64,000 bases of DNA. It comes from Chiloscyllium plagiosum. Lineage: Eukaryota. Position 1 is the first letter of the stretch, and each line of letters opens with the position of its first letter. Shown here in pieces: positions 1,060 to 59,845 of the stretch. The notes under the pieces are model-generated. The model ran no database searches, was not told where the DNA came from, and worked only from the letters and a program-made list of their open reading frames with translations. A program made the position numbers and the translations under genes. The DNA lies in assembly GCF_004010195.1 (NCBI RefSeq), contig NC_057753.1, positions 6,619,378-6,683,377 on the forward strand, in the 5' to 3' direction.

Positions 1060-1185
1060 ATAACAACTCCATGACACTGTAACACTTGCGCTCTACATTC
1101 TGTGCTGTGCGGTTGTGTTCCACAGCCACCTGATGACGAGGCAGCGCTTTGAATGCTAGTGTTTTTACATAAACTAGTTTGTATG
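1060..1185 (+). mobile_element. Short Penelope-derived repeat with degenerate hammerhead core (family 1)
   Basis: ccac-CTGATGA(1130-1136)-cgaggcagcgcttt-gaat-gctagtg resembles the right arm of the 34540-34748 element. GAAA is mutated. Confidence 0.55.
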
Positions 1186-1632
1186 ATCTTTAACAATGTT
1201 TTACAGGAGAAACACGTAGACTGGTGGTAATATGTATCAATGGGCATGTGGGTTTAGATAGACTGTGGAATGGATTGGGCGATAAGCCCTGATTATAATG
1301 AATGCTGCAGCGGTTTCCAGCGCTCGAATGATATATTCCTGGTCATCCTTGAGTTTTTGCATTTACTATCGCATTCGAACTCCTGTTTTTTGGGTGTGAA
1401 TTCGTCATAGAAATGATCAAAAATGTAACAACTACTGAGTGCTTCCCGCAAGGCGACACAGCCTAGCTGTGATGTCACCAAAAAGCCAATCTGAGAGTTT
1501 GGACCATCAGCCGTTTGATCATCTTGTCATACATGTCGAGAATAAGCCAGATTTTTGTACAGACTTTGTTCCTAGGAATTCAAGTACTCATTAGCAAATT
1601 GGGAGCCAGGAATTCTGGAAGGCAACAACTGT

Positions 1633-2262
1633 GAAACATAGAACAGTACAGGCCCTTCAACCCTCGATGCTGTGCCGGATTTTTGTCTTACTCTCAGATC
1701 AAACTAACCTACACACTCTTCATTGTACTACTACCCATGTGCCTGCCCAAGAGTAGCTCCAATTTTTCTAATACATCAAATTCTACTACCAGAACTGGCA
1801 GTACTTTCCACGTACCCCCTTAAATAACTGTCCGCTATTGATAGCCATTTCTGCCCTTCGGAAAAACTTAATCCCTCATAAATCACTCTATCTATGCCTC
1901 TCATCACCTCGTACAATTTACCAAATCGCCTCTCACGGTTCTTCACTACAAATGTAATAAGTCTTAGCTGCTTCCAACTTTCTTCATTAGACATGCCCTC
2001 CAGTCAGGCAGCATCTAGAGCTTTCACATCCATCCGAAAACTGAAAATAACTGAAAACAATATTCAAAGTGTGGTCTAACCAGGGTTCTGCAGAGGTGCA
2101 GTAAAGTCATGCGGCTCTTAAACTTAATCCCGTTCCTAATGAAAGCCAAAGCTGCATATGCCTTCTTCACAATACTATCAACTTTAATAGTAACTTCGAG
2201 GAATGTATGGACATGGACCCCAATATTCCTCTGTTCCTCTACACTTCCAAGAACCCTGCCTT
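1633..2262 (-). mobile_element. CR1-type LINE 3' fragment
   Basis: Begins with the reverse-complement CR1 3' tail (acatagaacagtacaggcccttc). Minus-strand translation includes LYEVMRGIDRV. Runs into the N gap. Confidence 0.8.
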
Positions 2263-2457
2263 NNNNNNNNNNNNNNNNNNNNNNNNNNNNNNNNNNNNNN
2301 NNNNNNNNNNNNNNNNNNNNNNNNNNNNNNNNNNNNNNNNNNNNNNNNNNNNNNNNNNNNNNNNNNNNNNNNNNNNNNNNNNNNNNNNNNNNNNNNNNNN
2401 NNNNNNNNNNNNNNNNNNNNNNNNNNNNNNNNNNNNNNNNNNNNNNNNNNNNNNNNN
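2263..2457. other. Assembly gap (195 N)
   Basis: Run of N. Confidence 1.
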
Positions 2458-3664: not shown

Positions 3665-5530
3665 AGAGCGTCATAATGTAGTACAGGAACGAAAGAAAAA
3701 CCTTCAGTCCAACTACTTCCTCCCGTCCATAATTAGAAACTGACCAGGTCACATCTGCCTGGATTTGGTCCATCTGGCTTCGAATCTTTCCTATTAAAGG
3801 ACATATCCAAACGTAGTTTTAATATTGCAATGGAATCCGCACACATGACCTCCCCCGCGAATTAATTCTGCACACAGACCACCCTCTCGGCAAAGAATGT
3901 CCCCTCTCATGTCTTTGCATATCTCTCATCTCACCTTAAAATTATACCCTCTAGTCTCAACGTACCCTGGTCATGGTTTTATAAACCTGTAAGTTCACCG
4001 TTCAACCTCCAAAGCTTCAGTGAAAATGAATACTCAACCTTTCAAGGTACTCCTGAGAAGTCAAAGGTTCCATCACCCTCAGCATCCTGGTTAAAAAAAA
4101 ACATGCTGATCTATCCAATTTCATTATATAGCATTCCAATAATAGGAACAATTGAGGACTGCAGACTGCAGAAGCTGGAGATCAGAGTCAAACATTGTGG
4201 TGTTGGAAAAGCACAGCCGGTCAGACAGCATGCGATGAGTAAGAGACCCGATGTTTCTCGCAGAAGCACTTCCTCAGGAATGCGTGATGAAGAGCTTATG
4301 CTCCAAACGTTGACTCTCCCCCTCTGCAGATGCTGCCTGCACGGCTGTGGTTTTCTAGCAACAGAATTTATGACTCTTTCCCATAATGGGTTAAAACGGA
4401 ATGGACAACAATGCTCCGTGGGAGACGTCACTAACATTTTTAAATCGAAAGATGACGTTCCAATTCCTCCCCTCCAACGTCTGGACAGTGAAGGCCAGCA
4501 TACTAAATGCATTCTTAACTATCCTATAAATGTGTGACATAAAGTTCAAAGAATTATGTACCTAGTCTCCGAGGTCAGTCTTATCTATAATACCATGTAA
4601 TGTCTTGCTTTAATTGAATATTTCCGGCCTTGTTGTTTTGCAAAATGAATGTTTCATATTCATTCCTGTTGAACTAGGTCTGCCATTGTTCCACGCCTTC
4701 ACCCGTCCTCTAGAAATCACTTTATAATCTCAGAAAACTGTCTTCGCTGATTAATGGCCAGCGTTTTTGCTGTCATCCATAACCTTATTAATGTTTTCTC
4801 TATTCTGTAACAAGATGAGGGCGTCGCCGACTAGGCAACATATATTGTCCATCCCTAATTGATGGCAACAGATCTCTAGTCCGAAAAAAAAAACCATCTA
4901 CCAACCCTCTCTGTATCTTGCTAGCAAACATATTTCATATTCAATTGCCATATTCACCCTGAATCCCATGTGATCAAACTTTATTGATTAGACTAGAATG
5001 TGAATCCTTGTCACAGGCTTTATTGAAGTCCAAGTAAACAACATGAACCAGTTCACTTATCGATGGTTTTGGATGTATCCTCAGAAAACTCAATCACCTG
5101 CTGGAGACATGATTTCCCGCACACAAAATTATGCTGACTCCTCAATCCTTGACTCAGGCAATGCATACACATCCTACATTTTAGTAGCACCGACAAGAAC
5201 TCACACATCATCAAAGGTGGACTCAATATATCTGCAATTCCTCGGTTTCTCCTTGTATCCCTTTATAGGCAATGCCACTCTCCAGTCAACTGGCATCTCT
5301 TTCGTGATATGCATGATGCACATGTGTCTGCAAGGGCCCTGTAAATTCCTACCTAAGTTTCCTAAATGTACTGAGGCATCTGACATCAGGTCAAGAAAAT
5401 GTATCGATATTTATATTTTCTAAGACTACCAACACGTCCTGGTCTGTGGTGTGAACAATTTCAAAACACCAATATTTAGTTCTCTGCATTCTCTCGCCTT
5501 TTTTGATTTCACTACAGTAAAAAAGAAGAG
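3665..5530 (-). mobile_element. Old, degenerate CR1-type LINE (RT to 3' end), interrupted at ~4154-4377
   Basis: CR1-like 3' end near 3690 and decayed RT motifs (e.g. reverse complement of ggctttattgaagtccaagtaaac = VYLDFNKA at ~5016-5040). Confidence 0.65.
4154..4377. mobile_element. Inverted (palindromic) pair of hammerhead-bearing Penelope tails (family 2), degenerate
   Basis: Left arm agagtca...ttcctcaggaa is an imperfect reverse complement of the right arm tgatgaagagcttatgctccaaacgttg...tgactct. Centre ~4280. Confidence 0.65.
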
Positions 5531-5648
5531 GACATAAAGTATTCACTTAATATCACATCTGTCTCGTGGGATTGAACACAAAGGCGACCTCTTCGAACTG
5601 TATTGGGTCCTCCTCTCTCTTTTGCCCTTTTGGTCAGAATCACGATTG

Positions 5649-6390
5649 TCACCTTCCCCGCCACAGCAGGAAGTGCACAACCTGCCCCTGCAGCATCTCC
5701 TCACCTCCATCTAAGACCCCAAAGAATCCTTTCACATCAAACAGAAATTTACCTGTACCTCCACAAATGTCAATTACTGTATCCCTTGCACTTGATGTGG
5801 TCGTCTGTAGACTGCAGAGAGTCGATGTCAACTTGTGGATCGTTTCAGAGAACCTCGCTTCGAAACCCGCACTAACCAACCCCATTGCCCTGTGGTGGAA
5901 CACTTCAACTCTCCCACACACTTCACCAAGGACATGCAAGTTCCTGGGCCTCTTCCATCGGCAAACCTTAGCGATCCAAAGACTGAAGGAAGAACGCCTC
6001 TTCTTCTGCCTTTGAAAAGCGCAACTATACCGGATTAAATGGACTTCAAACGTTTCCTCATTTCCTCTTCCCTCAGTTTATCTCAGTCCAAAGACTCCAA
6101 CTTGATAAAATCTGCTGGATTTTTCAATCGGCTTTCTCATCTATCCATGCCCCCCCCCCCATCTCTGACCTATATCCTTCCCCCACCTTCCTCTACCTAT
6201 TGCCTTCTCAGCTATCTTCCAGCGAACCCCACCCACTTCCATTTCACTCTCAAACGTCCTCCCACAAGCCTCATTCCGGACGACAGTCTGATGACGGAAA
6301 CTCGATTCTCCTGCTCCTCGGTTACTGCTTGACATGGTTTGCTTTTCAGACTCTGATCTAAAGCATCTGCAGTCCTCACATTCTCCTGAT
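5649..6390 (+). mobile_element. Penelope-like element 3' portion (GIY-YIG pseudo-ORF plus 3' tail with decayed hammerhead)
   Basis: Decayed translation RKCTTC...SFHIKQKFTCTSTNVNYCIPCT*CGRL*TAESRCQLVDRFREP...CPVVEHFNSPTH, then a pyrimidine-rich tail ending in the family-2 motif (gaaactcgattctcctgctcctc...gcatctgcagtcctcac). Confidence 0.85.
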
Positions 6391-9165
6391 ACATTGCTTT
6401 GTTTCAGATGTTCAGTGATTTCTGAGCGATCGTAAATGATGTTTATTGCTGTTTCTCCCCAACCACATGCGCCCCATTACATTTATTAAGCGATGTTTGT
6501 CTGAAACGTTATAGGAGAACTGCAGGCATGTTTCCTTTCTTCTCTTGACTAGAACCTCAGTATGTTTACTCATTTATTGTACCCAAATCTTACCAGGCAT
6601 GCATTTCACTTTCACAATGAACATAATTATTCAGAACTGTCGTTGTCGCACTTCTGAAAGACCGTCCTTTGTCAGACGTCCTATTTCGTGTAAATATCAT
6701 ACTTTAATCATCTTTGAAGGTTCTGGTCGCATACTAATTATTCAATTATCTAAGATCTCTTTGCATACTTAGTTCTCAACTTCACTTTGACTACTTGGAT
6801 GCCGAAAGTACATTCTCAACAAGGCGATCATTCCTTTCTTGTTTCGAATTTCAACACATTTGTTTCCGCTCGACTATTTTTTCAGAAATGTCATGTCTAG
6901 TTCCAACAGTACTGTTTTCCTCAATTAAAATTTGAGATCAGATCCCACTCCTCTCCACCCTCCCATTCCATCTTTTCAATAGCATTTTGCACCTTGGAAC
7001 ATTGAACTGCCACACCTGTCCATTCATCACATTTCTGCAATAACCACAACGTCTCAACCCCATCTTTCCCAACATTCGCTGCGTTCATCAGCCTAACATG
7101 CAAAACATCTTTCCTTAAAAAAAGAAGCAGTTTAGTTCTTCGTACTCTGATATTTCATTGTCAGTTTTTTTCGAAGTAACTTGTTATTTTCATAATCAAG
7201 GCTTTCGTAATTCCTGTTCTATTTAAACTGCTGCCTAATCTTGCTCTACCATCTACCCCTCCCCACTAACATTTTACATTCTCACTTAATGGAACTCGCA
7301 AAGAGAGCGAGTGGTTTACAAATTATTGAAATCTGTGATTCACTGATCAAATGTAATACCTTAGCGCAAATGTCATCTTGAATAAAATGGCCTTTTTCAA
7401 ACCTCACGTTTTTTAGTACGGCAAGAAGCCACACTATCTTTCCTTCTCAGCATCAGAATGCTTTGAAAGTATTGTTCGCATTCAGAAGACGTACACTGGT
7501 GACAAACACAAATGTTATTCCTTCGTCAACCCTAACTAGTCAGTATAACAAAATAAAAATCAAGTCTTTAGTTCGGGCAATTGTCGTTGTGAATGCACCT
7601 GTTGCTGCCATCCTGTTAGTAGCAAACCTCCCGTAATTCTCAAAGAAAGTGATCGTGTAAGCATCATCTACAATGACTTTTTAACAAACTTAGTTCTAAG
7701 AATGACAACAATTTCATTCATAAAGCATCATGTTAAAACAGTTGTTTTCCTACATCGGTTCATAACTTTTTTTAAAAAAAACGAAAAACATAGACATTTA
7801 CACGTGCAAGAATGCCCCTGAAATTACTTAATGGTGAGATTAAGAAAACGATGTTTCCAAGCGAAGAAGAAGAAGAAATGGATCTCAGTGAAACGTGAGG
7901 GAAGAATGCAACATAGGGTGCGAGGAAGAATAAAGGAAGAACAGGAGACATAATGTAGCAAATGAAAGGATGATTCAAGGAAGCCAGTACAAAAACTTAC
8001 TCACGAGACAAATGAATATGACCTATGTCGTTTAAAATTGAGAAGTACGGAGAAGCAGTTCGTTCTGAACATGCTATTGATTGAATGACCGATTCATACA
8101 TACATAGGAAAAGACACGACAATTGCTGAAAAAACTGGTTCATGTTATCACGTGTTGAACTCAAAACAAAAATATGTAGGAAATGTTTAAGTAATACTGA
8201 ACTTCGTGAAAAAAAATCTGGAGCAATTTAAAAGCCATTACCCTTGCTAACGAAGGAAATATACAGCAGTGATGAAATCAAATTAGAGACGATTTAATCA
8301 TCTAATAACTAGAATATGTGGCAGTAAATGTTGGAAATTATTTGTCTGGTTCATGTCAAAGATTATATTGTGTGACTTGATATATACATATTAAGACGAA
8401 CCCTTGGTCAGAAATGGCTTGTTTTTCAGGACCGATCGGAATGTCAACTACTCAGGTCAGTCATGATCGAATTGAGTAACGCAGTACGCGCAACGGGGCA
8501 TATGGGTATGTTCCTTCTTCCTATCCATATGATTGGATATGCATAGGCGTGTCTATAAAAAATGCAATGCAGCATAATTGGAAATATGTGGATTACCTGT
8601 GATATGAAAAATTAAAGGTTAAACACGTTCGGATAACTGTAGTATTTGTAGCACTTTACGCATTTCAGTAATGTTTTTAGGCCGATTATTTTGAAGAGTT
8701 GTGGAATGATGTAGGGGTAATCTTTCTTTACAGAATTAGGGAAAAATCGATCTGGAAGTCATTACGGAGAATGGAATGACCTCGGACCTACAGGAAATTG
8801 CTGATTAATGCTGTCTAAGTTGAGGGTTACACAGACCTCTTGCAGTGAGAGACACATGGAGAACTTTACAATATAAATGAAACATGTAACTGGCAGAATC
8901 TAAAGAGGGTGGGAAAGTTTTAATTTCTAGAGAAGATACAGAAAAACAAAATGGCGAGATGGCAAAAGGAAATTACAGATATCATTTTTATTACTGGGGC
9001 AGATCATGTTGGAGTGTGGTGGAGGTTATTGGGCCAGGGGAAAGCACACTAATAGGGATCAATACACATTTTGTCGGAAGTGACTGGAAAAAACCCCAAA
9101 AGTTACAGGATATTCTCTACTGGTTCACATTTTGCCTATTACCTGTTTTTGCATTAAAAATGACG

Positions 9166-10049
9166 TTAGTTTGATTGTTTCTTAATAAACGCAATAAGTA
9201 ATGTCAGAGGATATGTCAATGTAAGTTTTAGCTGTTCTCTGAACTTAGATTGTGTTACCACGTAAATGAACGTGTTTGTGCAGCAGCTTAAATTACGCAG
9301 CATATATGCAAAGTTCTCAAATACATAAGCAGACGGGTCATCTAATAGCTCAGCAACATCAAAAAAATATAAAACGTAGATGAATCACAGAAGTATGAAG
9401 CTGCTGGATATGGTGAAGAGCAAAATGATAGACTTCCTTCTACTCTCAGCTCCAGAGTCTCCCTTGCTGTGACATTTGAGTCGTTTACGGATTCGACTGG
9501 CCACTAAAATACAACTGACTGTCACACCGTTGAGAAACAGAATTAACCCAATTGGTATCAGCGGTGTTAAAATCTTCTCAAATATACGAAATCCAATCCA
9601 TCTCGAGTCAGTGAAATAGATTGGTCTGTTAGAACAGCGCCAAGGTATGTTGTTGATAATCCTCCGTGGTCTAAATCTAAAGTATATTGGAATATTTTTC
9701 AAACACAGAATGATCCCTGTTGTTAGGAGAATCACTGTTGCAGTTTTCTTTGTACAATATTGAGATTTCAACTTTGGGCAACAAATAGCAATAAATCGAT
9801 CAAAAGTGAAAGTGACAGTGAACCAGACAGAACAGTCTGTGGCTGCGCGGAGCAGAACATAGCGAATACTGCACACAGGAGTGATTTCCAGGAAATTTGA
9901 TGAAAAATAATAATCATTGATTCTGTTCAGTACAACCTCAGTGATGATGACGAGGAGATCTGCTGTTGTCATGGCCAACAGGTAGCGAGTTGTGCAGGTT
10001 GATAGCCCACAGCTTTCCTTGGACAGGACTAAAACTGAAACTAAATTCA
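9166..10049 (-). pseudogene. GPR139/GPR142-like class A GPCR, paralogue 1, coding exon 2; premature TGA at 9385-9387
   Basis: Acceptor ctctcttccag (AG at 10051-10050). Encodes VNL...CGLSTCTTRYLLAMTTADLL (TM2), PVCS...WFTVTFTFDRF (TM3), KNIP (TM4), LTP (TM5), LLFTISSSFILL*. The frame continues past the stop: FIYVLYFFDVAELLDDPSAYVFENFAYMLRNLSCCTNTFIYVVTQSKFREQLKLTLTYPLTLLIAFIKKQSN, ending at TAA 9166-9168 and colinear with paralogue 2. Confidence 0.88.
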
Positions 10050-11144
10050 CTGGAAGAGAGGCAAAAACATGTATTTGGTAATAAAGATTGATTTGCTGTT
10101 TCTGATCAGCCATTAAGAACTTTTCGCCAGAGATGTATGCATTTGGCATTATCACAGAGTTTAAAGTAATGGAGAAATTAACTGTGTGACAATGTAAGAT
10201 TGATTCATTATTGCCAACAAGAATTCTCCATTCGTAAGCATTAACCATTTAATATCTACACATGTATATGTTGGTACTATGGCAGTGACAAAATACACTG
10301 AGCAATGAATCCAGTCTGACTGATAACTGCACACTTCCAAGCTTAACATTTTGGGATCTCATCCAATGTCAGGTTAATCCTGTGCAGTATGAGGACAGGT
10401 TTAGTATTTATGCAAGATCCTATGTATGTAATTAACTTTCACTTATTACTTTTTGTCGTATTAGCTGAGCTTCTAGCAGATCGCATTTGGTTTTGATTTA
10501 ACCACTACAAATTGAATCCGAGTCACTAATAGTTTAATCTTTAAAAAATTATATGATGATGGAGTGATTTCAGATTTCATCTCATAGGAAACAGGTTGTG
10601 TTCTATTTTTTGGGTACAAAAATGCAGTGTAAATATCCAATATTGAGTTCTTAAAAGGTAAGATTCCTGTAAATAGAGATATGGAGAATATAATTTCACT
10701 GCCAATTTTCTAAAATCAAAGTTTACCACTTTAGAATTGCCAATGATAAATGTACGGAAAAATGGTTTGAAGTCCCAGAATATTTAGCTTATGGAATTAC
10801 TGGTACATGGAATAATTGAGATCATTAGCTTCAGTGATGTAAGACAAAAAAATGGCGACAATGGCAGGAAATGCCAGTTGCTTTAAATGAGATTTAATAG
10901 ATGGAAGCTTTCATAGATCAGACAGTCAGTTATTACTTCATTGAACGAAAAGTGCTCATGTTTGCCCTTTGATATCTGACTTCAGCATAAATGAGCTACA
11001 TTAGTTGTACTCCCTCACAGTCATCTGTATGTATTGAATGTAATGATATGCTTAAGATTTAGTGATTCCAATTAAAAAAAAGTGATGCTCCCCATTACTA
11101 TGGTTTATCTGTGAGAGATCAGTGATCACTTCTCTCACTCATAC

Positions 11145-11297
11145 ACGAATACAGCGGGGCATGCCGGTAATCCGAAATTAAACCTACTCCAGCATCATCT
11201 GTGGAGAGAAAATAGAATTAAGTGGACATGAAAGATTAACTGTGCCCACAGATGATGCCAGGCTTGCTGTGATTTCCCAGCAATGTGTATGTTTGTT
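11145..11297. repeat. Degenerate short inverted-repeat interspersed element in the paralogue 1 intron
   Basis: gcatcatctgtgg...aattaa versus ttaac...ccacagatgatgc are reverse complements. The 3' part (gcttgctgtgatttcccagca) resembles the family-2 tail. Confidence 0.4.
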
Positions 11298-18200: not shown

Positions 18201-18202
18201 GT

Positions 18203-18410
18203 CAGTGGCGGGAGATCTGGGGTAATAGAGAAGATAGGAAAGGTTGCGAGCCAGGAATTGGGGTGGGGCTGGAGCTGGGTGTGGGGGTGATGAAGAGCTT
18301 ATGACCGAAACGTCGATTATCATTCTCAGTCGATGGTGCCTGATTGTTGTGCTTTTCCAGCATGACATTATAGACTCTGATTTCCAGGATCTGGAGTCCT
18401 CACTTTCTCC
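18203..18410 (+). mobile_element. Penelope-tail insert with hammerhead core (family 2), preceded by a purine-rich, probably inverted, tail segment
   Basis: gTGATGAagagcttatgaccGAAACGTCgatt (18287-18318) followed by the family-2 tail ending gtcctcactttctcc. Confidence 0.65.
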
Positions 18411-34539: not shown

Positions 34540-34748
34540 TTCGGAGATGCCGGTGTTGGACTGGGGTGTACAAAGTTAAAAATCACACAACACCAGGTTA
34601 TACTCCAACAGGTTTAATTGGAAGCACACTAGCTTTCTGAGCGACGCTGCTTCATCACCTGATGAAGAAGCGTCGCTCCGAAAGCTAGTGTGCTTCCAAT
34701 TAAACCTTTTGGAGTATAACCTGGTGTTGTGTGATTTCTAACTTTCTG
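34540..34748. mobile_element. Palindromic Penelope-derived insert (family 1) with 12 bp target-site duplication
   Basis: Arms 34572-34657 and 34660-34745 (86 bp each, 4 mismatches, 2 nt centre). TSD aactacttctga at 34528-34539 and 34749-34760. Confidence 0.92.
34656..34691 (+). ncRNA. Predicted minimal type I hammerhead ribozyme motif
   Basis: CAC-CUGAUGA-a-GaAGC-guc-GCUcC-GAAA-G-CUA^GUG: core intact, stem I CAC/GUG, palindromic AGCU in place of stem III, one mismatch in stem II. Confidence 0.65.
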
Positions 34749-36971: not shown

Positions 36972-37153
36972 TCAGGGTTCCTGATGAAGGGCTTTTGCCC
37001 TTAACAATCGATTCGCCCACCTATAAGATGAAGGTTTTTTTTTTACCCGAAACGACGATTTTCCTGCTCCTCGAATGTTGCCTGACCTGCTGTGCGTTTC
37101 CAATTACATACTATCAACTCAAATCTCCAGCACCTGCAACCTCACTTTCGCCA
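36972..37153 (+). mobile_element. Family-2 Penelope-tail insert with two tandem hammerhead-like cores and a 15 bp TSD
   Basis: CTGATGAagggcttttgccc at 36981; second gatgaagg...cccGAAACGAC at ~37027-37057. TSD aatgacaatctatca at 36957-36971 and 37154-37168. Confidence 0.85.
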
Positions 37154-42251: not shown

Positions 42252-43500
42252 TCATAGAGTCATAGACGCAGCACAGAGAGAGGCCCTCCTGCCCAAACTG
42301 GTATGCCGACCAAAATGTTCATCGACATTATTACCATTTCGTTGCACGTGGCCCACATCCATCTAACAGCTTCGCATCCATGGAATTATCTGAATGTCAT
42401 TTATATGGTATTAATGTAAACGCCTGAAACACTTCCGCTGACACCTCATTCTACTTGCATATCATCATCTGTGTAAACAAGTTACCACTCAGGTTCACTT
42501 GTATTCTTTCCCCTTAAACTGATGACCTCTCGTCCACGATTCCACAACCAATGTCACAGTGAATTCACCCTATCCATGCCTCTCATGATATTATGCATTT
42601 CAACGAGATCCCCTCAGTGCCCTGCGTTCTAAAGAAACGAATATCATGCTTGCCTAACGTAGTGTCCTGACATACACATGAGGAAGGACACCACTTCGAC
42701 TGGGACAACACGTCCATGCTAGGACAAGCCAAACAAAGACGCGCACGAGAATTTCTAGAAACATGGCATCCCAACTGAAACTTGATCAACAAACACAGTG
42801 ATTTGCATCCTATTACCAACAATGAGCAAAATAAGAGGAAATGACATTATCACAGGAAATAATTTCACCACAGGAAATAACATCCCCAAACCAGGGAAAC
42901 ACAAACACATAATTAGAAAGCCGGCCATACCACCATTGCTTCATCCGCAGGCTTACTGATGATGTTACCTAGTAAACTGTTGAAACGTCTGAAAACGAAT
43001 CTTTCAGCTCAGCGAGCAAACCTACATCCAGAACATCAACTTGAGCTATAAACCTTCTCAAGACTGGTTATTAAACTCCATTTGCCATTTTTCAGCAGAC
43101 TTTGGCCCAGCTGATCATGGTCCTGCTGCAATTTCGGAAAACCTTCCTAGCTGTCCACGGCACCTCCGATTTTAGTGTCATCTGCAACATTAATAATCAT
43201 GCCTTGTACATTTTCATCCAAATTATTGATATAAATTACAAATAGCAATGGGCCCAGCACCGAACCCTGAGAGATTTCACTGGTAACAGGTCTCCCATCC
43301 GACCAGCATCGTTCCACTATTACTATCTGCTTCCAAACGAGAAACCATTCATGCATCCAATATGCCTGAGCCCACCACCACAACCCTCGACGGTTTTTTT
43401 TTGAGTTCTAACCTTTCAGAACAGCCTACCATTTACAATATCATCAAAATCCACATAGACACCTCAAAGACCCAGCCCTCGTCGAACGTACTGGTCACTT
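42252..43500 (-). mobile_element. CR1-type LINE fragments flanking a Penelope insert
   Basis: Tail tcatagagtcatag at 42252; minus-strand SQGSVLGPLLFVIYINNLD...VADDTKIGG (43147-43383). Confidence 0.85.
42662..43065 (+). mobile_element. Penelope-like element 3' end with hammerhead-like core (family 3)
   Basis: HTHEEGHHFDWDNTSMLGQAKQRRAREFLETWH...INKH (GIY-YIG C-terminus), followed by CTGATGA(42956-42962)...GAAACGTC(42982-42989). Confidence 0.85.
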
Positions 43501-43509
43501 TATAAAAAG

Positions 43510-46500
43510 AGAACAAAGAATGAAGAAGAACAAAGAAAATTTACAACCCAGGAAGCGGCCATTCAGCCCACCAAGCCTCAACCGATCGAAATGTACTGTC
43601 TAAACCTGTCGGTCAATTCCGATGCATCTGTATTCCTCTGCTTCCCACCTACTCATGCATCTGTCCAGACGCATCTTAAATGAATCTACTATGTGTGTCT
43701 CTACCACCTAATCTCGCAACGAGTCCCAGACGCCCACCATCCTCTATGATAAGTAATTGCCACGTATATCCCCCTTAAAATTTCCACCTCTCAACTTGAA
43801 AGCGTGACCACTCGTTATTGAATCCTTCACCCTCGGAAAAAGCTTGTAGGTATCCACCTTGTGTATACCCTTCATGATTTTGTAAACCTATACCAGGTAC
43901 CACTCAATCTCTTTTTTTCTAATGAAAATAAACTTAACCTACACAACTTCTCTTTATAACTAGCACTTTCCATACCAGGCAACATCCTTGGAAACTATAT
44001 GCCTTCTTGACCACTCTAATCCACCTGTGCAGCAACCTTCAGGGTACAATGGACATACACTCCCTCTGCCCATCAACATTTCCCAAGGCTCTTCAATTTA
44101 TTGTATAATTCACCCGATAATTAGTTTTGCCTAAATGCATCACCTACATTTGTCTGGATTGAAATCCATCTGCCACTTTTCCGCACAACTCTACAGTCTA
44201 TCTATATCCTCCTGTATTCTTTGACAGTCCCTTATGCTTTCTGCTACTCCACCAATCTTGATGTCATCTGCAAACTTGCTGATCATACGAAGATTGCCCT
44301 CTCACATATCACTTATGTATATTACAAACAACAATGGCCCCAAAACTAACCCCTGTGGAACACCATTGGTCCACTTTCTCCATTTCGAGAAACTCCATTC
44401 AACTGCTACTCTATGTGTCCTGTTGTTCAAACAGTTCTTAATCCACCTAGGTATAAAACCCTGCAGACAATGTGACCTCACTGTCTGCATTAGTCTACCA
44501 TAGGATACCTTACAAAATGCCTGACTAAAGTCCATGCAAATGACATCAACAGCCCTTCCTTCATCTATCAATCTGGTCATTTACTCGAAGAACTCTATTA
44601 AGTTGGTAAGGCACGATCTCGCCCGCACAAAATCATGTTGCCTATCACTGAGAAGCACATTATTTTCTCGATATAAGTCGATCTTACCACTCAGTACCCT
44701 CTCCAGCAACTTTCTCACCACCGACGTCAGGCTCACCTGTCTGCAGTTACATGGAATAACCTTACTACACTTATTGTAAAAGGGGACAACAGAGCAACCT
44801 TCCAGTCCTCCGGCACCTCACCTACACTTAAGGACGCCACAACGATATCTGTCAGGGCCCCAGATCTTTCCTCTCTCGCCTCCTTCAGCGACCTTGGATA
44901 CATCCCATCGGGTCCTGGGAATTTGTCCATCTTGATAACCTCTAGCCTACCCAACACATCTTCCCTACGTATCTCAACGTGATCCAGACTAATCGAACTT
45001 CTATCTCTAATCTCAAAATTCACCATGTTCCTCTTCTCGTTAAACACTGATGCAAAGTTGTCATTCAGAATCTCATTCATTCTCTCAGGGTGGACACACA
45101 GCTTTCCTTCATTATCCTTTAGTTTATCAATCCTTTCTCTAGTTACTCGCTTGCTTCCTTTTTAAGAATAAAATGCTTTGGGATTTTCCTTAATTCTGCT
45201 CGCTAAAGCTATTTCACGACCCCTTTTAGCCCGTTTGGTTCCTCATTTAAGACTTGTCCTGCGTTTGCGATATTCCGCCAGGGCCCTTTCTGTTCTTAGC
45301 TGGCTCGACATTATGTACGCTTCCCTTTCCTCTTGGCAAGTCGTACAATTTTTCCTGTCATCCACGGTTAACAAACCTTGCTCTTCCTAACCTTTGTCTT
45401 CGACGGGACATGCCTATCCTGCACTATCTTTAACCTATCTTTGAAAGCCTCCCACATCTCAAATGGGACTTCCCTTCAAATAGCTCTGCCGAATCCACAT
45501 TTCCGAACTGCTGCCTAATTTTGACATAATTGGCCTTGGCCCAGTTTAGTACTCTTCCATAAGGCGAAAGTGAGGACTGCAGATACTGGAAACTAGAGCT
45601 TAAATCAGAGTGGTGCTGGAAAAGAACAGCAGGTCAGGCAGCATTCAAGGAGCAGGAAAATCGGCGTTTCGGGCGAAAGCCCTTCATCAGCCCTTTTCCA
45701 GCACCCCAATACTCTTCCTTTAGGACCACTCTCATCTTTATCTATGACTATTCTAAATCTTATGGAATTGTGGTCACTGTTCCCAAATAAATCCTCCACT
45801 GTAACTTCTACCATCTGGCCTGGCTCGGTCCCCAGTAGCATTTCCACTATGGCCCCTACCCTCTTCGGACTATTGTCATACTGCTCTAGAAAACTCTCCT
45901 GGACGCTTCTTACAAATTCTACTCCATCCAGACCTCTAACGCTAAGTGTAGCCCAGTCAATGTTGTGAAAATTAAAATCTCTCATTACTACTACCCTGTG
46001 CATCTTCATCTTTCCATAATTTGTTTACCTATTTGTTCTTCTACCTCACGCTCACTGTTCGGAGGCCTGTAACACAGCCCCAACAATGTAGCTGCAGCCT
46101 TCTTATTTCTCAGCTCCACCCATAATAACTCACTACCCAAGACCTCCATAGCATCCTTCTTTTGCACAGCCGTGATATCATCCCTGACCAGCATTGCAAC
46201 TCCACACCCACCCCATCCCCACGCCTTTACTTCCCTTCATGTCCTGTCTGAAGCTTCTTCCTCCAGGAACATGTAGTTGCCAATCCTCATGCCCTTCCTT
46301 CCACCAAGTCTCTGTTATTGCAATAACGTCATAATCCGAGACCAATCCAAGCCCTAATTTCATCTGCCTTACATACTGAACTCGTTGCATTAAAGTAGAT
46401 GCATTTCAGGCCACCAGTTCTTTTGTGCTTATCTGTTCTCTGACTATTCTTCCCTTTATTAATGCTATCTTCCTCATTCTTACAGTCTCCAGTCTCCACT

Positions 46501-49274: not shown

Positions 49275-52090
49275 GATAGTGTCGAAGCAGAGCGAGATGA
49301 TTTCGAATCTGTTTACGTAGAATTGACGATGCGCAATTGTTAAAAAAATCAATAGTTGTAGTTATATCCAGGCCTGCAAACAGTAGTCAGGAGCTGGGAT
49401 GAAAGATACACCAAGAGATAGAAAACCTGTGTAAGAAGGGCGAGGTTACAGTGATCATGGGCGATTTCAATTTGAAGGTCAATTGGGAAAACCAGGTTGG
49501 TAGTGGTTTGCAAGAAAAGATATTTGTGAAATATCGACGAGATGGTTTTTTGGAGCAGCTTGTGTTGGAGCCCACTTGGGAACAGGAAATACTGGATTTA
49601 GTGTTGCTCAAAGAGGCAGACTTAATGAGACAGGTTCAGGTGAATGGGCCATAATGTGGCAGTGATCATGTGATTAAATTTACTCGGCAATGTGAGAGGC
49701 AGAACTTGCCACCTTCCCCCACCCTCCTCGTTGACCTACCACGTCCGTCCCCACCCCCATTCAGCTATTGTACTCTATGCTACTTTCTACACATCCCCAC
49801 CCTCCTCTCATTTATCTCTCCACCCTGCAGGCACTCTGCCTCTATTCTTGATGAGGGCCTTTGCCTGAAACGTCGATTTTCCTGCTCCTGGATGCAGCCT
49901 GAACTTCTTTGTTTTTCCAGCACCACTCTAATCTCGAGGATGGAATGAGGTGTACGTTATTATAGCTGAATAAAGGTAAATTGAGAGGCATGAGTGCAGA
50001 GCGAAGTAGCATTGCCAGGGGAAGACGCCCAGCAGGAAAAACTTTGGCACACCATTGGCGAGAGTTCTTGGGAGTAATTCAGGAGACACAGCAAAGATTC
50101 ATCATGAGGGAAGTGAAGCATGTTACAGATAGAAGGATGAGGTCATCATGGCTGACCACGGAAGTCAGGGATAGCAAAAAAGCAAAAGGGAAAGCATCTA
50201 ATGTGGCGAAGGGCAGTGGAAAACCAGAGGATTGGGAAGATTTCAAGACCAACATCGGGTAACAAGGAAACAATAAGGAGCAGGAAAATTGAATATTAGG
50301 GTAAGCTAGCCAGTAACAAACAGCAAGACTGTAAGTTTCCGAACATTAAAAAAGTTAAAAGAGAGGCCAAAGTGGAGACTGTTCCCTTGGAAAATGACGC
50401 TGGAGAGATAGTAGTGGGGAACACGGAAACGGCTGAGGAACTCAATAATTAACTCGTTTAATTCTTCATGGTGGAAGACAGGAGTATTATCCTAAAACAA
50501 TCAAGAAAATAAGGGGGCAGAGCTGAGGATGGTGGTCATCACCAAGGAGAAGCCAGAAAACTGAATGGCCGGAAGGTAGCTATTCACCTAAAGTTCAAAG
50601 GAAGACAGCTGAAGAGGTAGTGGAGACGTTAGTGGTGGTCTTTCAGGAATCTGTAGAATCAGGGAGGGTCCCAGAGGACTGTAGAATCTTTAGCTTAAAT
50701 TCCCTGTAAAAAAGGGAGTAAGGGAAAAGACGGAAATTTACAGACCATTTACTCTAACCCCGGTCATGTGTAGGATCCTGAAAACCATCGTGACAGATTC
50801 GATTTCTGAATACTTGAAAGTGTATGGCAAAATAGGGCAAAGTGAGCATAGTTTCCTCAAGGTGACGTCATGCTTGACAAGTTTGGTAGAAGTTTGTGGG
50901 GAAATAACGAGCAGATTGGGCCAAGGAGAGCCAATTGAAGTTATCTCCCTGGACTCTAAAAAGGCCTTCGACCAGGCTGTAACTGAGGAAGATAAGGGCC
51001 CATTATTTTAAAGGCACGTTGTTGGCTGCCTTCCAGAAAGCACAGAGAGGGGATAAAAGCATTTTGCACAGCATGGCAGCTGGTGACATGTGGTGTTCCG
51101 CATGGGTTGTTTGTGGGATCACAAATGTTGACCTTATACATTAACGATCTGGATGAAGCAATTGAGGGCATTCTGGCTAAGTTTGCAGACGATAAAAAGA
51201 TAGGTAGATGCACAGCTCACATTGATGAAACGGTAAAACTGCAGAAGAATTTGGACTGATAAACAGAATCCCCGAAGAAATGGCAGAAGTCATAGAACGT
51301 GGGAAAGTGCAAGGCCATGCAATTTAGTAAAAAGAAAAATGTGTGAAATATTTTCCAAATGGGGAGAAACTTTAGAGATCGGAAATATAAACAGACGTTA
51401 GAGTTATTTTCCAGGATTCTCTCCAGGTTAACTTGCAGATAAAGTCAATAGTTGGGATGACAAATGCAATGATGGCATTTAATTTGAGACCCGTTGAATA
51501 TGAAATCAGCGGTGTACGTCTGAGACTTGGTGAGGCTCTGGTAAGAACAAAATTGGAATTTTGTGCGCAGTTTTGATTGCCATACCTCAGGGACGACTTA
51601 CTGACCCTGGAGAATGATCACAGTCAGTTCATTGGTATGGTTTCAGGAATGAAATGCTCAACACATGAGGAGCGTTTAAAGACACTGGGACTATACTCGA
51701 AGAAGTTTTCAAAGATGAGTGGGTATCTAACTGAAACTTACAGAATATTGAATGGCCTGGACAAATTGGATATTTGAAAGATGTTTCCATGGTAGGAGAG
51801 ACGACGAACCTAAGACAGAACCTTAGCGTAAATGGAGAAGAGATAACGAGGGGCGTCATCAGGCAGTGACTGGTGAATCTATGGAATTCATTTGCAGAGA
51901 AGGCTGTGGTGGCCAGGTGGTGAGTATTCAAGGCTAAGAGAGATTCATTCTTGATTGTTGAGACGACCAAAGTTTACGAATTTAAGTGAGGTAATGGCGT
52001 GGAGAAAATTATCTGCCTTCAATGAATGGTGGAGCAGCCTCGATGGTCTGAATGGCCTAACGTCTGGTCCTGTGTCTTCTGGTGTTATTA
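49275..52090 (+). mobile_element. CR1-type LINE ORF2 (EN to 3' end), decayed
   Basis: IMGDFNLKVNWEN; EQEILDLVL; SLDSKKAFD; FADDKK; tail ctgaatggcctaacgtctggtcctgtgtcttctgg. Confidence 0.9.
49701..49935 (+). mobile_element. Penelope 3' tail insert with degenerate hammerhead (family 2)
   Basis: Pyrimidine-rich segment like 6140-6270, then tTGATGAgggcctttgcctGAAACGTCgattttcctgctcc; interrupts the CR1 EN region. Confidence 0.8.
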
Positions 52091-54188: not shown

Positions 54189-54219
54189 NNNNNNNNNNNN
54201 NNNNNNNNNNNNNNNNNNN
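54189..54219. other. Assembly gap (31 N)
   Basis: Run of N inside CR1. Confidence 1.
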
Positions 54220-54680
54220 ACTCAATACACAGTCTTCCACTACTGTCCTTGATTGGACCTACCCTCGTTCTCGTCATTCTCTGGTTTCTCACATACGCAT
54301 AAAATGCCTTTGGGTTATCCTTGATCCTATCCGCCAAAGATTTTTCATGCCCTCTCTTGGCTCTCCTAATCCCTTTCTTCAGGTCCCTTCTGGCTATCCT
54401 GTATCCCTCCACTGCTCTGTCTGAACCCTGTTTCCTCAACCTTATGTAAGCCTCCTTCTTCCTCTTTACAAGACATTCAACCTCCCTCGTCAAGTAAGGT
54501 TCCCTCACACGACCATCTCTTTCCTGCCTGACAGGTACATACATATCAAGGACACGTCGTATCTGTTCCTGGAAAAAGTTCTACATTTACACGACATCCT
54601 TCCCTGACAGCCTATGCTCCCAATTTATGCTCCTTGGATCCTGTCTTACAGTATCGTATTTACCCTTCCCCCATTGTAAA

Positions 54681-54784
54681 TCCCTGACAGGATTCCTGAA
54701 GAAGGGCTTATGCCCGAAACGTCGATTCTCCTGTTCCCTGGATGCTGCATGACCTGCTGCGCTTCTCCAGCAACACATTTTCAG
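54681..54784 (+). mobile_element. 104 bp family-2 hammerhead insert flanked by an 86 bp direct duplication
   Basis: 54595-54680 is repeated at 54785-54870 with 2 mismatches; the insert lies between the copies. Confidence 0.9.
54691..54728 (+). ncRNA. Predicted minimal type I hammerhead ribozyme, best-preserved copy
   Basis: GAUUC-CUGAAGA-a-GGGC-uuau-GCCC-GAAA-C-GUC^GAUUC: full core, perfect stem II, GUC triplet (cleavage predicted after 54723), palindromic ACGU, stem I 4 of 5 pairs. Confidence 0.75.
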
Positions 54785-57009
54785 CATCCTTCCCTGACAG
54801 CCTATGCTCCCAATTTATGCTCCTCAGATCCTGTCTTACAGTATCGTATTTACCCTTCCCCCATTGTAAAACCTACCCTGTTGCACGCACCTATCTCTCT
54901 CCATAACCAAGGTGAAAGTACACAGAACTGTGGTCACCATCACCAAAATGTTCACCCAAAAGGTTAAGACTGAAACATTTTCAACAATCCTCAGCCGGAA
55001 TATCCAAGTGATGATGTCTCTCGACTTTTTCTACTGTTCACCACTTTTGTACATGCCAGTTTTCAGCCAATTTCATTCACTACATGCGATATCAAAGAAT
55101 GGTTGGAGACACTGTATGCGGTAAATGCTATGGAACATGAGAACATTCTGGCAATATTAATGAAGAACTATGCTCCAGAATTGCTATCATCAGGCCAATC
55201 ATTTCCAAGCAAGCTGCAGCACTGGCGTCGACTCGATAGTGTGAATCATTGATCACGTGATGTCCTGGACACAAGATTTAATAGAAGCACCCAACAGTCT
55301 TCTCTCAGTCATCAGTAAAATGGTGGAAGGTGCCAACAACAATATTACAAAGCAGCACCTACTCAGCTGTACCCTTCACAGTGACGCCCAGTTTAATTTC
55401 CATTAAGGCCACTCAGCTCCTGAAATTGTCACAGACTTGACTCAGAATTTGACAAATTACCTAAATTCTAGAGGTAAGCTGAGCGTGACTGAATAGACTT
55501 GCACCAAGATCCCTTATATCCACTTCACTGAAATTAACCGACTCTACCCTCTTCTTAACTCATCGGTTGAAATTCTCATTCATTTCTGTGAAACCTGAAG
55601 ACTTAAGTATCCGAACATACTCCTGGATGACCTCCCAGATTAAAGGTTCCTGCAATCTCAATAATAACTAAACACTGCTGCCCAGGTGTTCACTGCATAC
55701 AAGATTTATTCAACCATTGCTCCTGTGCTCCCTGACCCACAAAGACTCCTATTTATAGACAGTAATGTATTTTTTTTGCTCTTGGTTTCTTTCCTGGTTG
55801 GGATCATCTGCATCCCCTGCACCGCACGACCTTTGAGAACATCCGTTTTCTAATTTGAACAATGTGTTTATTCATTGCTCCAACATTGGTGGTTCTTTCA
55901 ATAGTTGCCAACGCTACACGTTTTGGACTTCCTACCAGAAACCTGTCAGGTCTTTTTTCCACCTTTAAGATGCTCAGGAAAATCTGATGTGGAAATGCGT
56001 TTGGCCATCTGTATTCTCATGTCAACAGTTTCTTGTTAAAATTTTTGTGAAATTAGAAACGTAATAATGTTATAATTTATTGGGTATTTCGACACATAGC
56101 GTCGACTTTTCATGAAAACTGCTGAAGTAATATGTAACTCCTTACCTGACCACATTGTGGAATCCTTTCATCAACTGAACTGCAGCGGTGCAAGAATATT
56201 ACACCTCACGTACCCCACGGGCAAACAAGATTAAGCAACAACTCCTGTATATGTGGACGAAGAATCAGGGTTCATGTTTCAGGAGGAGAAAAATGAATTA
56301 TAGTAAATGAAAATATTGAGAATTTCATCGTCATAAAAACGAGGGAAATGGACTGAGTGGGTAAAGAAAGAATTCCCGACTGCAAAAAAATAACTTGGAA
56401 TATTCCAACTGGTAATAGAGCAGCATATGATTGTTGAATGACAACAGCAGAAAACTGCTTTACGAAATTGTAAACAAGGCGTTTGACACACTTGCCTTCA
56501 TTGATCGTATCATTGAAGATACGTGTCGGACGTCATGATGCAGTTGGAACACTACATACAATTTTGGTTTACCTTCGATAGAAAGAATGCTGTTAACCTT
56601 GAGAGACTGCAGGAAAGATTTGCAAGAAAATTCCTGGGATTCGAGTGTTTGAGAGAAAGAGAAAGGCTGCATTGTCTTTTTTATTAACCTGAAAAGTTAG
56701 ATAGTGAGGAATTTTGAGCCCAGGCACACACACGAGAATATTAGGACAGGTGACTAAAAGCTGGGTCAAAGAGCTAAATTCTACATCGCATCCGGAATGA
56801 TGAAATTGTACTTTGAATTCAGAAGACTGAGGGAGTAGATTGATAAGCGTATCGCTTTGGAAAGGGAAAACATTAAAAACGTGAAAGAAATGGACTGATA
56901 GAATTAGAAGCCCATAGATGGTTGGAGGTCAGTGAGAGCAAACGTCTCGTAAGAAAATCTGGAAAAACCTTGGATGCTGGAAATCAGAAGCAGAAGCAGA
57001 TATTGTTGT

Positions 57010-58070
57010 CGACAAGAGTAAGATTGGGGACTATCAATGACAGTATTGGGAAGTCAAGTGCGTTGACTGAAGAGATAGCGGAGGTGTAAACTGAATATTT
57101 TTCATCAGCATTCACACAGAAATAAGATTATGATATCGAGGACATTCCCAAGATACAGTTTATTTGACTCGACGGGATTGAGGTCCAGAATGAGGAGTTG
57201 TTAGCAATTCTGGAAAGTGTCAAAATAGATAAGGCCCCTGGGGCTAATGGGATTTATCCAAGGATTCCCTGGGAAGCTATGGAGAAGATTGCAGAGACTT
57301 TGATTTCAATGTTTATGCCGTACTTGTCTACAGGATTAGTGCTCGAAGACCGAATGATAGGAAATGCTGTCCCAATGTTCAAGAAGGGGATTTGAGACAA
57401 CCCTGGTAATTATTTCAGTTATGGGTAAGATGTTGGAAAGGGTGAGAAGAGATAGGATGTATAAACATGAAGAAAGGAATTATTTTAATTGGGGATGGTT
57501 TACACTGTTTTATGAAGGGTCGGTCGTGCCTCACAAACCTTACTGAGTTCTTCGAGAAGGTGACCAAATAGGTGGATGAGGGTAAAGCGGTTCATGCGGT
57601 TTATATGGATATGAGTGAAACGTTCGATCAGGTTCCCCACGATGACCTATTGGAGGAATTACGGAGGCTTAGGGTTGAGGGTAATTTAGCGGTTTGGCTC
57701 AGAAATTACCTTGCTGAAAGAAGACAGGGGCTGGTGTCTGATGAGCAGTGTTTGTCCTGGAGTTCAGTTACTCGTGGTGTACCGCAAAAAAATGTTTTGC
57801 GGCCACTGCTGCTTGTCATTTTCATAAATAAAATGGATGCGTGCATAGATGGTTGAGTAAGCAAATTTGTAGATGTTATTAAAGTCTGTGGCGTTGTGGG
57901 CAGTGTGGAAGGATGTTTCAAGTTACAGAAGCACATAGATAAACTGCAGAGCTGAGCAAATGGAGTTTAATGCGTAAAAGTGTGAGGTGATCCACTTTGG
58001 AAGGAGTAACAGCAATACAGAATACATGGTTTATGGTAAGATCTTTGGAAGTGTGGATGAGCAAGGTGAC
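57010..58070 (+). mobile_element. CR1-type LINE RT fragment
   Basis: KIDKAPGANGIYPRI; VYMDMSETFDQVPH; VTRGVPQKNVLRPLL. Confidence 0.88.
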
Positions 58071-59671
58071 ATGGAGGTGGACTGTGGCAGGCTGACTGGG
58101 AGTGTATTGGGGTCATTAAGTCTGGAAGTAAAAGAGACATGGATGAGAGTAACTTACGCAGGTGAACTGAGATGTTTTTGAAGATGAAGTATCAGTGTTT
58201 TTTGTGAAGATGGGGTATATGTGATGGGACGTTCATCTTGGGGATAAATATCTCACGACAGCCGTGACCATTCTGCTTCAGGTTCAGATAGATTTCTGGA
58301 AGATGGTGGAGCCAGCGGTGAGGAAGTGGAGTTCATCTCCAAGTCTGGATTGACAATCAGAATTCCACGATTTTGTGTGGACCATGCCCCTTTTCAGGCA
58401 GGAGAAGACTTGTTAGTAGAGCTGAGTTTTTAATCAACTTTATTGAGAACATGCATGGAGAACGGTATCGGTTGTTAAGCAGACTAAAGTGATAAACTCA
58501 GGCAAAGGTTGACAGTGATTTTCACTGCTCAAACCAATAACTGAACAGTACAACAGTGAAAGCACTTCTTGTATATTTTGCTGCCTCTGTCATCAGCTCT
58601 TTGTCTTTCTTGAGTCTTCATCTCTGATTCTGGTTGCTCTCCATGGCAAAGACCTTTCTAGGATGTTTGATATCTTGGATCTTCTCTGATTAACCTTCTT
58701 CTGCTCCTAGTCATATTTCATATGAGCAAGGCACACCTGACTTAACAATGTGATATTCTGCATATCCATCATAATTTTCCCTTCCTCACACGTCAGGAAT
58801 GCTATATTTACTAGACTCGCTTCACTCACATTCATCAATGCGCTGACACATATTTCAAGAGCTAACTTTAGGTTTTAGCTGCAGGAAGACTTTTCAAATC
58901 CGAATTAAATTTTTCAGGATCTCTGACTCGGTATAGTTCCAATCAAGTTTCTATATTTTCTTCATCTACTGCACTTAAAATGCAAGATTCAAAGGACAAT
59001 CAATGCTAGTTTCGAATGATCAAATTAAATGAGAATGCGTACTGGAGGTAATTCACCATCGCTACCTCCAAGTGAGTACCCAGTATTGTCTTGTGGCGAG
59101 GTCCGGGATGCACTAGAAAACTGTAAAGTGCCTACTTCCTATTTCTTTTTTTTCCCTTCTATTCTTTTTTTTTCATTTTATACTAAATAATCTGGTATAT
59201 TTGTACGTAAGATCGTGCAGCTAAAATAGTCAGTGACTGTGTGGCTGGTTTATATCAGGCAGGAGATAATTGATGCCATTGACTGTGTGGATGACTTGCA
59301 TCAGAATTGAGGAGATTCACATCAGTGACTGTGGGATTGGTTCATAACAGAAATATGGAGTTTAGTGTCAGTGACTGTGGGACTGTGCTTTTTTTAATCA
59401 TTCAAAAGGATATCGGTGTCAGAGAATTTGGGACCATTGCTTATCGGACTGATGTGTATTGGTGTCAAGGATTGCGTGGTTGGTTTGTATCAATTAGGAA
59501 GAGACTGGTTGATGACGTAATTCAGCTGAAATTTACTCAGTCGTCTGAACCAAGTCATTAATACAGATTGTAAATCATTGCTGATTCCACAGCAATTTCG
59601 TAGCAATTCCACTAGGTATAGCTTTACAAACTGAGAATAAACATTTCCTTCTACTATGTACTTATTTGTCG

Positions 59672-59845
59672 TGTGGAGGTGCTGGTGTTAGACTGGGGTA
59701 GACAAAGTTAATTTGGATACTTTGATCTTTTAATCATGTGTCCCATGATCCTGCTTAACAAGGTACCTGCCGAAAGAGCTGCGCTCTGAAAGCAAGTATT
59801 TCCAAATAAACGCTTTAGCATATAAAATTCTCTTCTGTGTATTTA
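59672..59845. mobile_element. Degenerate family-1 Penelope-derived insert
   Basis: ggaggtgctggtgttagactggggtagacaaagtta matches 34543-34578; gagctgcgctctgaaagcaagtatttccaaataaac matches the hammerhead arm. Confidence 0.6.

Follow-up and report, generated by a model that had tools for sequence, protein, structure and literature searches.

What produces short repeats that carry a hammerhead ribozyme motif and lie scattered at high density through shark DNA? The question is raised by a 64,000-nucleotide (nt) stretch of Chiloscyllium plagiosum (RefSeq assembly GCF_004010195.1, contig NC_057753.1, positions 6,619,378 to 6,683,377 of the forward strand), here called the window and numbered from its first letter. 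An earlier reading of the letters alone, referred to below as the original prediction, had listed a hammerhead-like core at 11 sites, had assigned the copies to three families derived from Penelope-like elements (PLEs), and had left a choice between a non-autonomous, retrozyme-like system and extreme 5' truncation of PLEs. Our analysis showed that the repeats are almost certainly PLE termini that carry the minimal hammerhead of these elements and decay neutrally. Most copies start at the front edge of the hammerhead core, which may be where the copied RNA began, and ribozyme cleavage is not the step that generated these copies. The motif and the insertion pattern are already known, and the window is a very dense new shark example of them. 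The repeats and the PLE remnants are given below; arm ends are numbered relative to core position C3, and RT and UTR stand for reverse transcriptase and untranslated region.

1122..1175, plus strand: degenerate family B arm, core from 1130; no significant target duplication
4150..4362, both strands: old family A head-to-head pair, with a tailed minus arm at 4157-4285 (core 4277) and a tail-less plus arm at 4284-4362; no significant target duplication
5718..6002, plus strand: broken GIY-YIG end of a Neptune-type PLE, with stops and a frameshift; tblastn E 3e-13 (P0139) and 6e-5 (RT-bearing P0007)
6003..6390, plus strand: 3' region of the Neptune-type PLE at 5718..6002, with a pyrimidine-rich UTR, a very degenerate family A hammerhead (core about 6277) and a tail
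18287..18410, plus strand: family A arm with tail, beginning at core U4; G-rich DNA upstream
34540..34748, both strands: family B head-to-head insert of 209 bp, minus arm with tail and plus arm without, joined at the core; arms 94% alike
34528-34539 and 34749-34760: 12-bp target duplication of 34540-34748
36972..37153, plus strand: family A insert of 182 bp that comprises an inverted stub of 8 bp, degenerate heads at 36981 and 37027 (46 nt apart) and a tail
36957-36971 and 37154-37168: 15-bp target duplication of 36972-37153
42656..42814, plus strand: broken C-terminal GIY-YIG end of Penelope/Poseidon type, with 126 relatives, including RT-bearing P0136 and GIY-YIG-bearing P0041 and P0086
42815..43066, plus strand: 3' region of the Penelope/Poseidon-type PLE at 42656..42814, with a family C hammerhead (core 42956) whose stem II is largely broken
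45559..45709, minus strand: family A insert of 151 bp, a minus arm from core C3 (45690) to the tail, with a 17-nt inverted stub of the tail-less end
45550-45558 and 45710-45718: 9-bp target duplication of 45559-45709
49696..49935, plus strand: longer family A copy with about 150 nt of native upstream UTR; core 49848, C3 mutated; no tail
54682..54784, plus strand: tail-less family A insert of 103 bp in a presumed CR1 fragment, with the sole intact minimal hammerhead (core at 54696, cleavage predicted after 54723)
54595-54681 and 54785-54871: 87-bp duplication flanking 54682-54784
59676..59830, both strands: family B remnant pair, a minus tail piece at 59676-59711 and a plus arm that starts at 59765; an 18-bp repeat, at the ceiling of the control, may be a target duplication
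62615..62724, plus strand: old family B arm with tail, core 62619; nhmmer E 1.8e-12; absent from the original list
46..561, minus strand: third GIY-YIG remnant, of a second Neptune-type family, whose terminus lies past the left edge of the window; absent from the original list

A hammerhead-like head was present at all 11 listed sites, each belonging to family A (stem GGGC/GCCC and variants), family B (stem of the GGAGC/GCTCC type) or family C, and one locus (62615-62724) had been missed. Profile searches were run with nhmmer, using profiles built from the window's own family copies and the reversed window as a control. They gave 8 strongly matching pieces for family A and 5 for family B; the only strong match outside the profile inputs was the new family B copy at 62615-62724. 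The profiles also added the second arms at 4277 and 34658 (both minus) and the second head at 37027, and no match below E 0.8 was found in the reversed window. With degenerate copies included, the 64-kb window has 12 loci, roughly one every 5.3 kb; the high density claimed originally (about 1 per 6 kb) stood with a revised count.

The two scans that had been proposed as checks differed in outcome. An Rfam scan of the window found no hammerhead at E<=10, whereas RNA-motif descriptors, in a strict and a relaxed version, exceeded a background of 12 dinucleotide shuffles: the strict one matched once (54696) against 0 in each shuffle, and the relaxed one 4 times against a shuffle mean of 0.5. Descriptor matches at 25742 and 25903 were rejected as family members; both came from a 161-bp tandem duplication (25657-25987) inside an RT-element fragment, presumably CR1. 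To examine the fold itself, paired stem II cells were counted over 14 arms and compared with the counts obtained after sliding the 3' strand by 1-3 nt. Here and below, only core-bearing arms are counted, core-less pieces being excluded; the degenerate head at 37027 was left out of the 14, and the register of the 6277 arm is uncertain (1 of 4 stem II cells paired as counted). In the native register 50 of 62 cells were paired, against 14-30 of 62 when slid. Two-sided changes were found at 4284 (G-C to A-U) and 59767, and the stems differ between families A and B, although these are few events. The expected stem II covariation was therefore seen, and the retained pairing, the two-sided changes and the family-specific stems argue that the hammerhead fold is a property of the source elements.

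The individual copies are decayed, as had been predicted. At the family level, the repeats have the features of a minimal hammerhead (CUGANGA, GAAA, the extra nucleotide, G10.1-C11.1, palindromic 15.2/16.2 and UH), but an intact core with palindrome, UH triplet and stem II was found in only 1 of the 14 arms (54696). Divergence from the majority sequence was 14/88 in the core and 101/630 downstream for family A (p=1.0), and 6/55 and 27/202, respectively, for family B (p=0.82). The decay rate of the core thus matches that of the neighbouring DNA (16% and 16%; 11 core positions). Since the core differs as often as the downstream DNA, the inserted copies are dead and decay neutrally; selection on individual copies was rejected, and the core conservation above the rest of the repeat that had been looked for was not found. 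Family C is represented in the window by a single copy (42956), with 3 of 5 stem II cells paired, two of them as G-U. No helix III loop was seen in the window motifs.

Like the minimal hammerheads of PMC4209133, the window motifs lack a real helix III and have a palindromic 15.2-16.2, an extra nucleotide between 9 and 10.1, G10.1-C11.1 and a short helix I; they likewise fall into several families per genome and are mostly dispersed singles of truncated PLEs, with some opposite-strand pairs. Vertebrate genomes are reported to contain thousands of such hammerheads, most of them lone copies of truncated PLEs (PMC4209133). The window differs in having a stem II of 4-5 bp instead of the 7-8 bp of Schistosoma, and its repeats are far denser, at 1 locus per 5.3 kb when degenerate copies are counted, than the 4,000-9,000 descriptor matches given for coelacanth and Xenopus (PMC4209133). 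Neither a clustering of 5' ends nor sharks are mentioned in the available parts of that paper.

The link to PLEs was provided by the broken coding frames. The best relatives of the frame at 5718-6002, P0139 and P0007, both have the cysteine linker of Neptune-type endonucleases, and a family A head lies about 275 nt 3' of this remnant. The linker (CX2-5CxxC, as defined in PMC8557442), standing before a GIY-YIG domain with CCHH, was found in the 46-561 remnant, in P0007 and in P0139, and in degenerate form in 5551-5720. Judged by this endonuclease linker, family A is Neptune-type. The frame at 42656-42814, about 140 nt 5' of the family C head, matches the C-terminal end of an 832-aa RT protein, and other relatives have Pfam GIY-YIG; the endonuclease motif was found in 30 of the 126 relatives and the linker in none. 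On the grounds of a GIY-YIG domain with CCHH and an absent linker, family C is classed as Penelope/Poseidon-type. Family B has no link to an open reading frame (ORF) within the window. For the broken GIY-YIG frame at 46-561, 419 candidates yielded 11 relatives; 10 of these relatives come from Chiloscyllium, Hemiscyllium or Scyliorhinus (57-84% identity), and this Neptune-type remnant is a candidate for the autonomous partner of family B. A tblastn search with P0007 found no PLE RT remnant in the window, and Pfam recognised none of 7 broken endonuclease/UTR frames, all recognised by homology searches. The placement of two copies 3' of GIY-YIG Penelope remnants was thus borne out by homology to Neptune-type and Poseidon-type endonucleases, and both the Penelope origin and the agreement with the published minimal hammerhead were supported. 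On balance, the repeats are likely to be dead-on-arrival terminal modules, a pseudo-long terminal repeat (pLTR) end with an optional tail, of at least three autonomous PLE families. A literature search found no shark PLE hammerheads; subscription papers, Repbase/Dfam and supplements (such as the species tables of PMC4209133 and of a 2026 preprint) were outside its scope and may hold them.

Four loci (4150-4362, 34540-34748, 45559-45709 and 59676-59830) are head-to-head inverted pairs, a feature missed in the first reading, and in all four the terminal 30-40 nt, the tail, is on one arm only. The 3' ends of family A lie at about +85 or about +125 from C3, and those of family B at about +90 or about +120. 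Four inserts are bounded by duplications (34540-34748, 36972-37153, 45559-45709 and 54682-54784). This claim of the original prediction was only partly upheld by a control of 58 random pairs, in which the best score of 9 was reached in 3 of 58. The 12-bp and 15-bp duplications exceeded the control, while the 9-bp one, although exact, was at its ceiling. The fourth is an atypical 87-bp duplication with 85 identical positions, which suggests nicks about 90 bp apart. Nine other end pairs were tried and none was above the control, with 59670-59836 at its ceiling. The first 10 nt of the 54682-54784 insert copy the target at 54600-54609, as templated filler at the 5' junction.

The junctions are unlike one another at every inverted locus, as expected if each was made at insertion. 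The known PLE pattern consists of an inverted 5'-truncated repeat, a palindromic junction, an optional 30-40 bp tail and an 8-10 bp duplication (PMC3846280, PMC8557442, PMC8969392); a tail on one arm is described in PMC3846280 and PMC8557442. Like the inserts of endonuclease-bearing (EN+) PLEs in these three papers, the window inserts have a head-to-head repeat with a palindromic junction, one arm with a 30-40 bp tail, duplications of 9-15 bp and heavy 5' truncation. Unlike them, they have no ORF and no second direct pLTR, and both arms end at the front edge of the hammerhead.

This front edge is the most regular feature of the repeats. At least 9 of the 14 core-bearing arms begin within a span of about 12 nt, from about -9 to +2 of C3, and so do 6 of the 7 arms within duplication-bounded inserts. 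The starts are about -8 (4277), +1 (4284), +1 (18287), +1 (34658), -3 (34659), about -4 (36981), 0 (45690), -4 or -5 (54696) and -2 (59767). The 1130 and 62619 arms are alike up to -6 and then diverge, and the arms at 6277, 42956 and 49848 extend 150-700 nt farther upstream. No start among the 14 arms falls at -10 to -149 or at the predicted cut site (about +28). With starts spread uniformly over 160-300 nt, at least 9 of 14 would share one 12-nt span with a probability of 2e-5 to 1e-7. Extreme 5' truncation, one of the two origins first proposed, comes closer than the retrozyme, but the 5' ends do not form a continuum. Clustering of PLE 5' ends at the hammerhead was not found in the literature, in a search that left subscription papers, repeat databases and supplements outside its scope.

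Several observations were made around this edge. An AG follows a pyrimidine-rich tract 4-17 nt upstream of the cores at 1130, 6277, 42956 and 49848 (families A, B and C), resembling a 3' splice site. The base before the family homology is G at 4 of 4 junctions (18287, 36981, 45690 and 54696); a cap-templated G would look alike, and the sample is tiny. Family A has an initiator-like hexamer at -4, which was set aside because such a motif is too common to count. G-rich DNA (18090-18286) lies directly 5' of the 18287 arm, and 18180-18290 gave no convincing alignment with either known upstream UTR.

The edge was also examined in sequencing data. Of 24 listed runs, 4 were aligned to 49660-49960 at 80% likeness: two DNA contig sets of different organisms, a raw single-cell run with polyA selection and a contig set that is probably RNA. 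The two DNA sets gave 9,654 and 8,934 aligned contigs, which shows the family to be abundant in each organism. In both DNA sets (509 and 418 contigs) and in the third contig set (62 contigs), the largest of the listed piles of 5' loose ends was the one at the hammerhead edge; in the raw run, 187 reads were in this pile, which was not that run's largest. Within the pile, the family letters were kept to about -6, and agreement beyond was low (0.48-0.49 in the contig sets). The pile is compatible with a boundary at the hammerhead without being decisive. C prevails at 49848, with 98% of the depth in run X1, which means that the family core is complete. Strand-switch joints were few among the aligned contigs; contigs of palindromes would hide them. 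In the RNA run, 997 of 12.96 million reads aligned, and 99% of these continue into unrelated sequence. For 34000-43100 the run listing gave no RNA match, which speaks in neither direction. RNA reads of run X21 over the motif and downstream were strand-skewed about 3 to 1, and upstream reads were unskewed.

How could such copies be made? In the mechanism that we propose, a PLE protein would nick both target strands, and reverse transcription would start inside the RNA, about 85-125 nt downstream of the hammerhead core, at two sites one tail apart. An internal two-site start on both strands, as in another PLE in vitro, probably accounts for the two 3' ends and the one-tailed pairs. The parallel is drawn by analogy with Poseidon of Anolis carolinensis, whose protein cuts and extends both strands in vitro and whose two internal RT sites, roughly 100 nt downstream of its hammerhead, delimit the tail (PMC11167929). 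The shark inserts resemble this system in their two 3' ends one tail apart, in a presumed two-strand priming, in a hammerhead close upstream and in the lack of RNA reads that end at the cut site, and differ from it in that family A is Neptune-type. In many templates the RNA would begin a few nt before the core; the simplest cause would be a transcription start site (TSS) within the pLTR, such as has been reported for Penelope and Chlamys-3 (PMC8557442). The cDNA would run off after 90-130 nt and join the target or a second cDNA via 2-4 nt of microhomology, and two run-off cDNAs joined together would give a head-to-head pair with one tail. We infer that this second part, a template end just upstream of the core with run-off cDNA and microhomology joining, is rather more probable than otherwise. 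Fold-back self-priming (PMC3846280) would give palindromes too, and explains the one-sided tail less directly.

A number of points weigh against a template end at the core. The arms were chosen by holding the core, and there are four core-less pieces: 11246-11283, 59676-59711, 1010-1039 (E 0.13) and the 17-nt stub at 45693-45709. The boundaries at 1130 and 62619 are soft because family B has no known native upstream DNA. The alignment test is confounded, since a substitution and a 1-nt deletion lie at the edge in its reference, which also carries the upstream DNA of one subfamily, so that alignments would stop there anyway. Summed contig depth (which is not copy number) was 0.45-1.0 million upstream of the core and 1.0-1.3 million over it; being of the same order, these depths indicate that long copies are also abundant. 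No position had many RNA starts, although 997 reads, drawn from about 2% of a fragmented polyA library, have little power. In D. virilis Penelope, finally, an intron and not a start site abuts the hammerhead (PMC4209133).

We weighed four other origins of the copies. Random 5' truncation would make the boundary an artefact of choosing copies by the hammerhead. The three long copies and four core-less pieces in the window fit this reading, as does the apparent genome-wide abundance of long copies; it is nevertheless very unlikely, because no arm starts at -10 to -149 and profiles built from downstream DNA find few copies that begin inside. The copies may instead be PLE termini whose 5' boundary came from endonuclease trimming at ATT, from arrest at a protein-bound hammerhead or from an RNA end at a 3' splice site, which we consider doubtful. 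RT pausing is expected at the 3' foot of a fold and not at its 5' edge, so arrest would place the stop on the wrong side. Trimming draws on the preference of the anole PLE endonuclease for ATT (PMC11167929), and family A has ATT at -4 to -2, but family B has its boundary at the core without ATT there. The AG and pyrimidine tract upstream of A, B and C cores are like the intron end of D. virilis (PMC4209133); yet the AG is at -17 in the 49848 subfamily, while 45690, a short copy of like type, begins at 0.

The 90-130 nt units might also be a self-propagating non-autonomous PLE family resembling short interspersed elements (SINEs), in which short masters with an internal promoter, a protein-binding fold and RT start sites are copied in trans. 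Fixed 5' and 3' ends, target duplications of their own and the very high density speak for it, as do putative non-autonomous PLEs in Chlamys (PMC8557442) and a preprint that derives animal retrozymes from pLTRs (10.64898/2026.07.22.740005). We regard it as unlikely, given the identical boundary in two unrelated families and several A variants, the separate junction of every inverted locus, the failure to find a tRNA-derived head in the short units and, more weakly, the 2-3 diagnostic letters that short copy 45690 and long copy 49848 have in common. The retrozyme-like origin first proposed, in which hammerhead cleavage of multimers frees units that circularise and reinsert, is exceedingly improbable. 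The units are, like non-LTR retrozymes, small (100-210 bp), non-coding and pLTR-related with a type I hammerhead (PMC7229834, 10.64898/2026.07.22.740005), they have target duplications of >4 bp, two tandem heads stand at 36972-37153, and retrozymes are reported in one chondrichthyan genome (10.64898/2026.07.22.740005). Retrozymes, however, are arranged in tandem, head to tail, carry canonical motifs and are expressed as circles, whereas the window units are solo or head-to-head, minimal and decayed (PMC7229834, 10.64898/2026.07.22.740005). TRF found no tandem arrays, and the sole tandem pair (36981, 37027) is degenerate; the motif is not a canonical type I with loop-loop contacts; none of the copies has an end at the cut site; and their core is no better conserved than the DNA downstream. 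In the RNA run, read ends did not pile up anywhere and no back-joint was seen, which is weak evidence because there were 997 reads and polyA selection removes circles. In the energy model, a dimer of the 54696 motif is feasible at -18.5 kcal/mol, but this lies 6.4 above the best fold (-24.9), and the motif is buried in the long hairpins predicted for the head-to-head inserts (-147 and -84 kcal/mol). The original statement that minimal hammerheads cleave better as dimers was overstated: PLE monomers gave no cleavage and dimers did cleave, at a low level (PMC4209133), and 1 of 9 dimers was cleaved in the preprint (10.64898/2026.07.22.740005). Cleavage of the anole Poseidon hammerhead needs protein and is dispensable for insertion in vitro, and no RNA reads ended at its cut site (PMC11167929).

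Some further observations concern the inserts and their setting. If transcribed, head-to-head inserts would form 80-90 bp hairpins, possible substrates for editing or small-RNA pathways; the Rfam matches to MIR845_1 and mir-143 at 34614-34703 were rejected, as they were below the gathering score and produced by the palindrome. A motif pattern scan of viral contigs gave 0 matches. Pattern scans of metagenome contigs gave 0 and then 5 matches, which had 54-68% GC and only the searched motif in common with the window and were attributed to chance. RT fragments, which we take to be CR1, are abundant in this cartilaginous-fish window (Pfam RVT_1), and Pfam found two 7tm_1 genes. These are related receptor genes, two and one fragment, at 9385-10248 (minus), about 11557-11760 (minus) and 39856-40851 (plus). 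In the predicted shark proteins P0008-P0010, a 7tm_1-type receptor is fused to part of a PLE endonuclease; two others, P0006 and P0012, contain PLE pieces as well; exonisation or an annotation artefact would give such models.

For shark genomes, these results suggest that matches to hammerhead descriptors or miRNA models are mostly decayed PLE ends. The fixed 5' boundary could bear on PLE replication, namely, on the origin of the upstream pLTR, the inverted arm and the role of the hammerhead, and with one insert per 5 kb, a very large set of junctions would be at hand for examining template starts, twin priming versus fold-back, and the role of cleavage. It is conceivable, if rather unlikely, that a PLE terminus of about 130 nt is a complete mobile unit, with a TSS before the hammerhead, a protein-binding fold and two RT start sites, and that some copies are masters of a minimal non-autonomous family very numerous in sharks. 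If so, the junctions would record, naturally and on a large scale, where PLE transcription starts and how second strands are joined, the hammerhead-shaped fold would serve protein binding and not cutting, and run-off copying would often proceed from both target strands at once.

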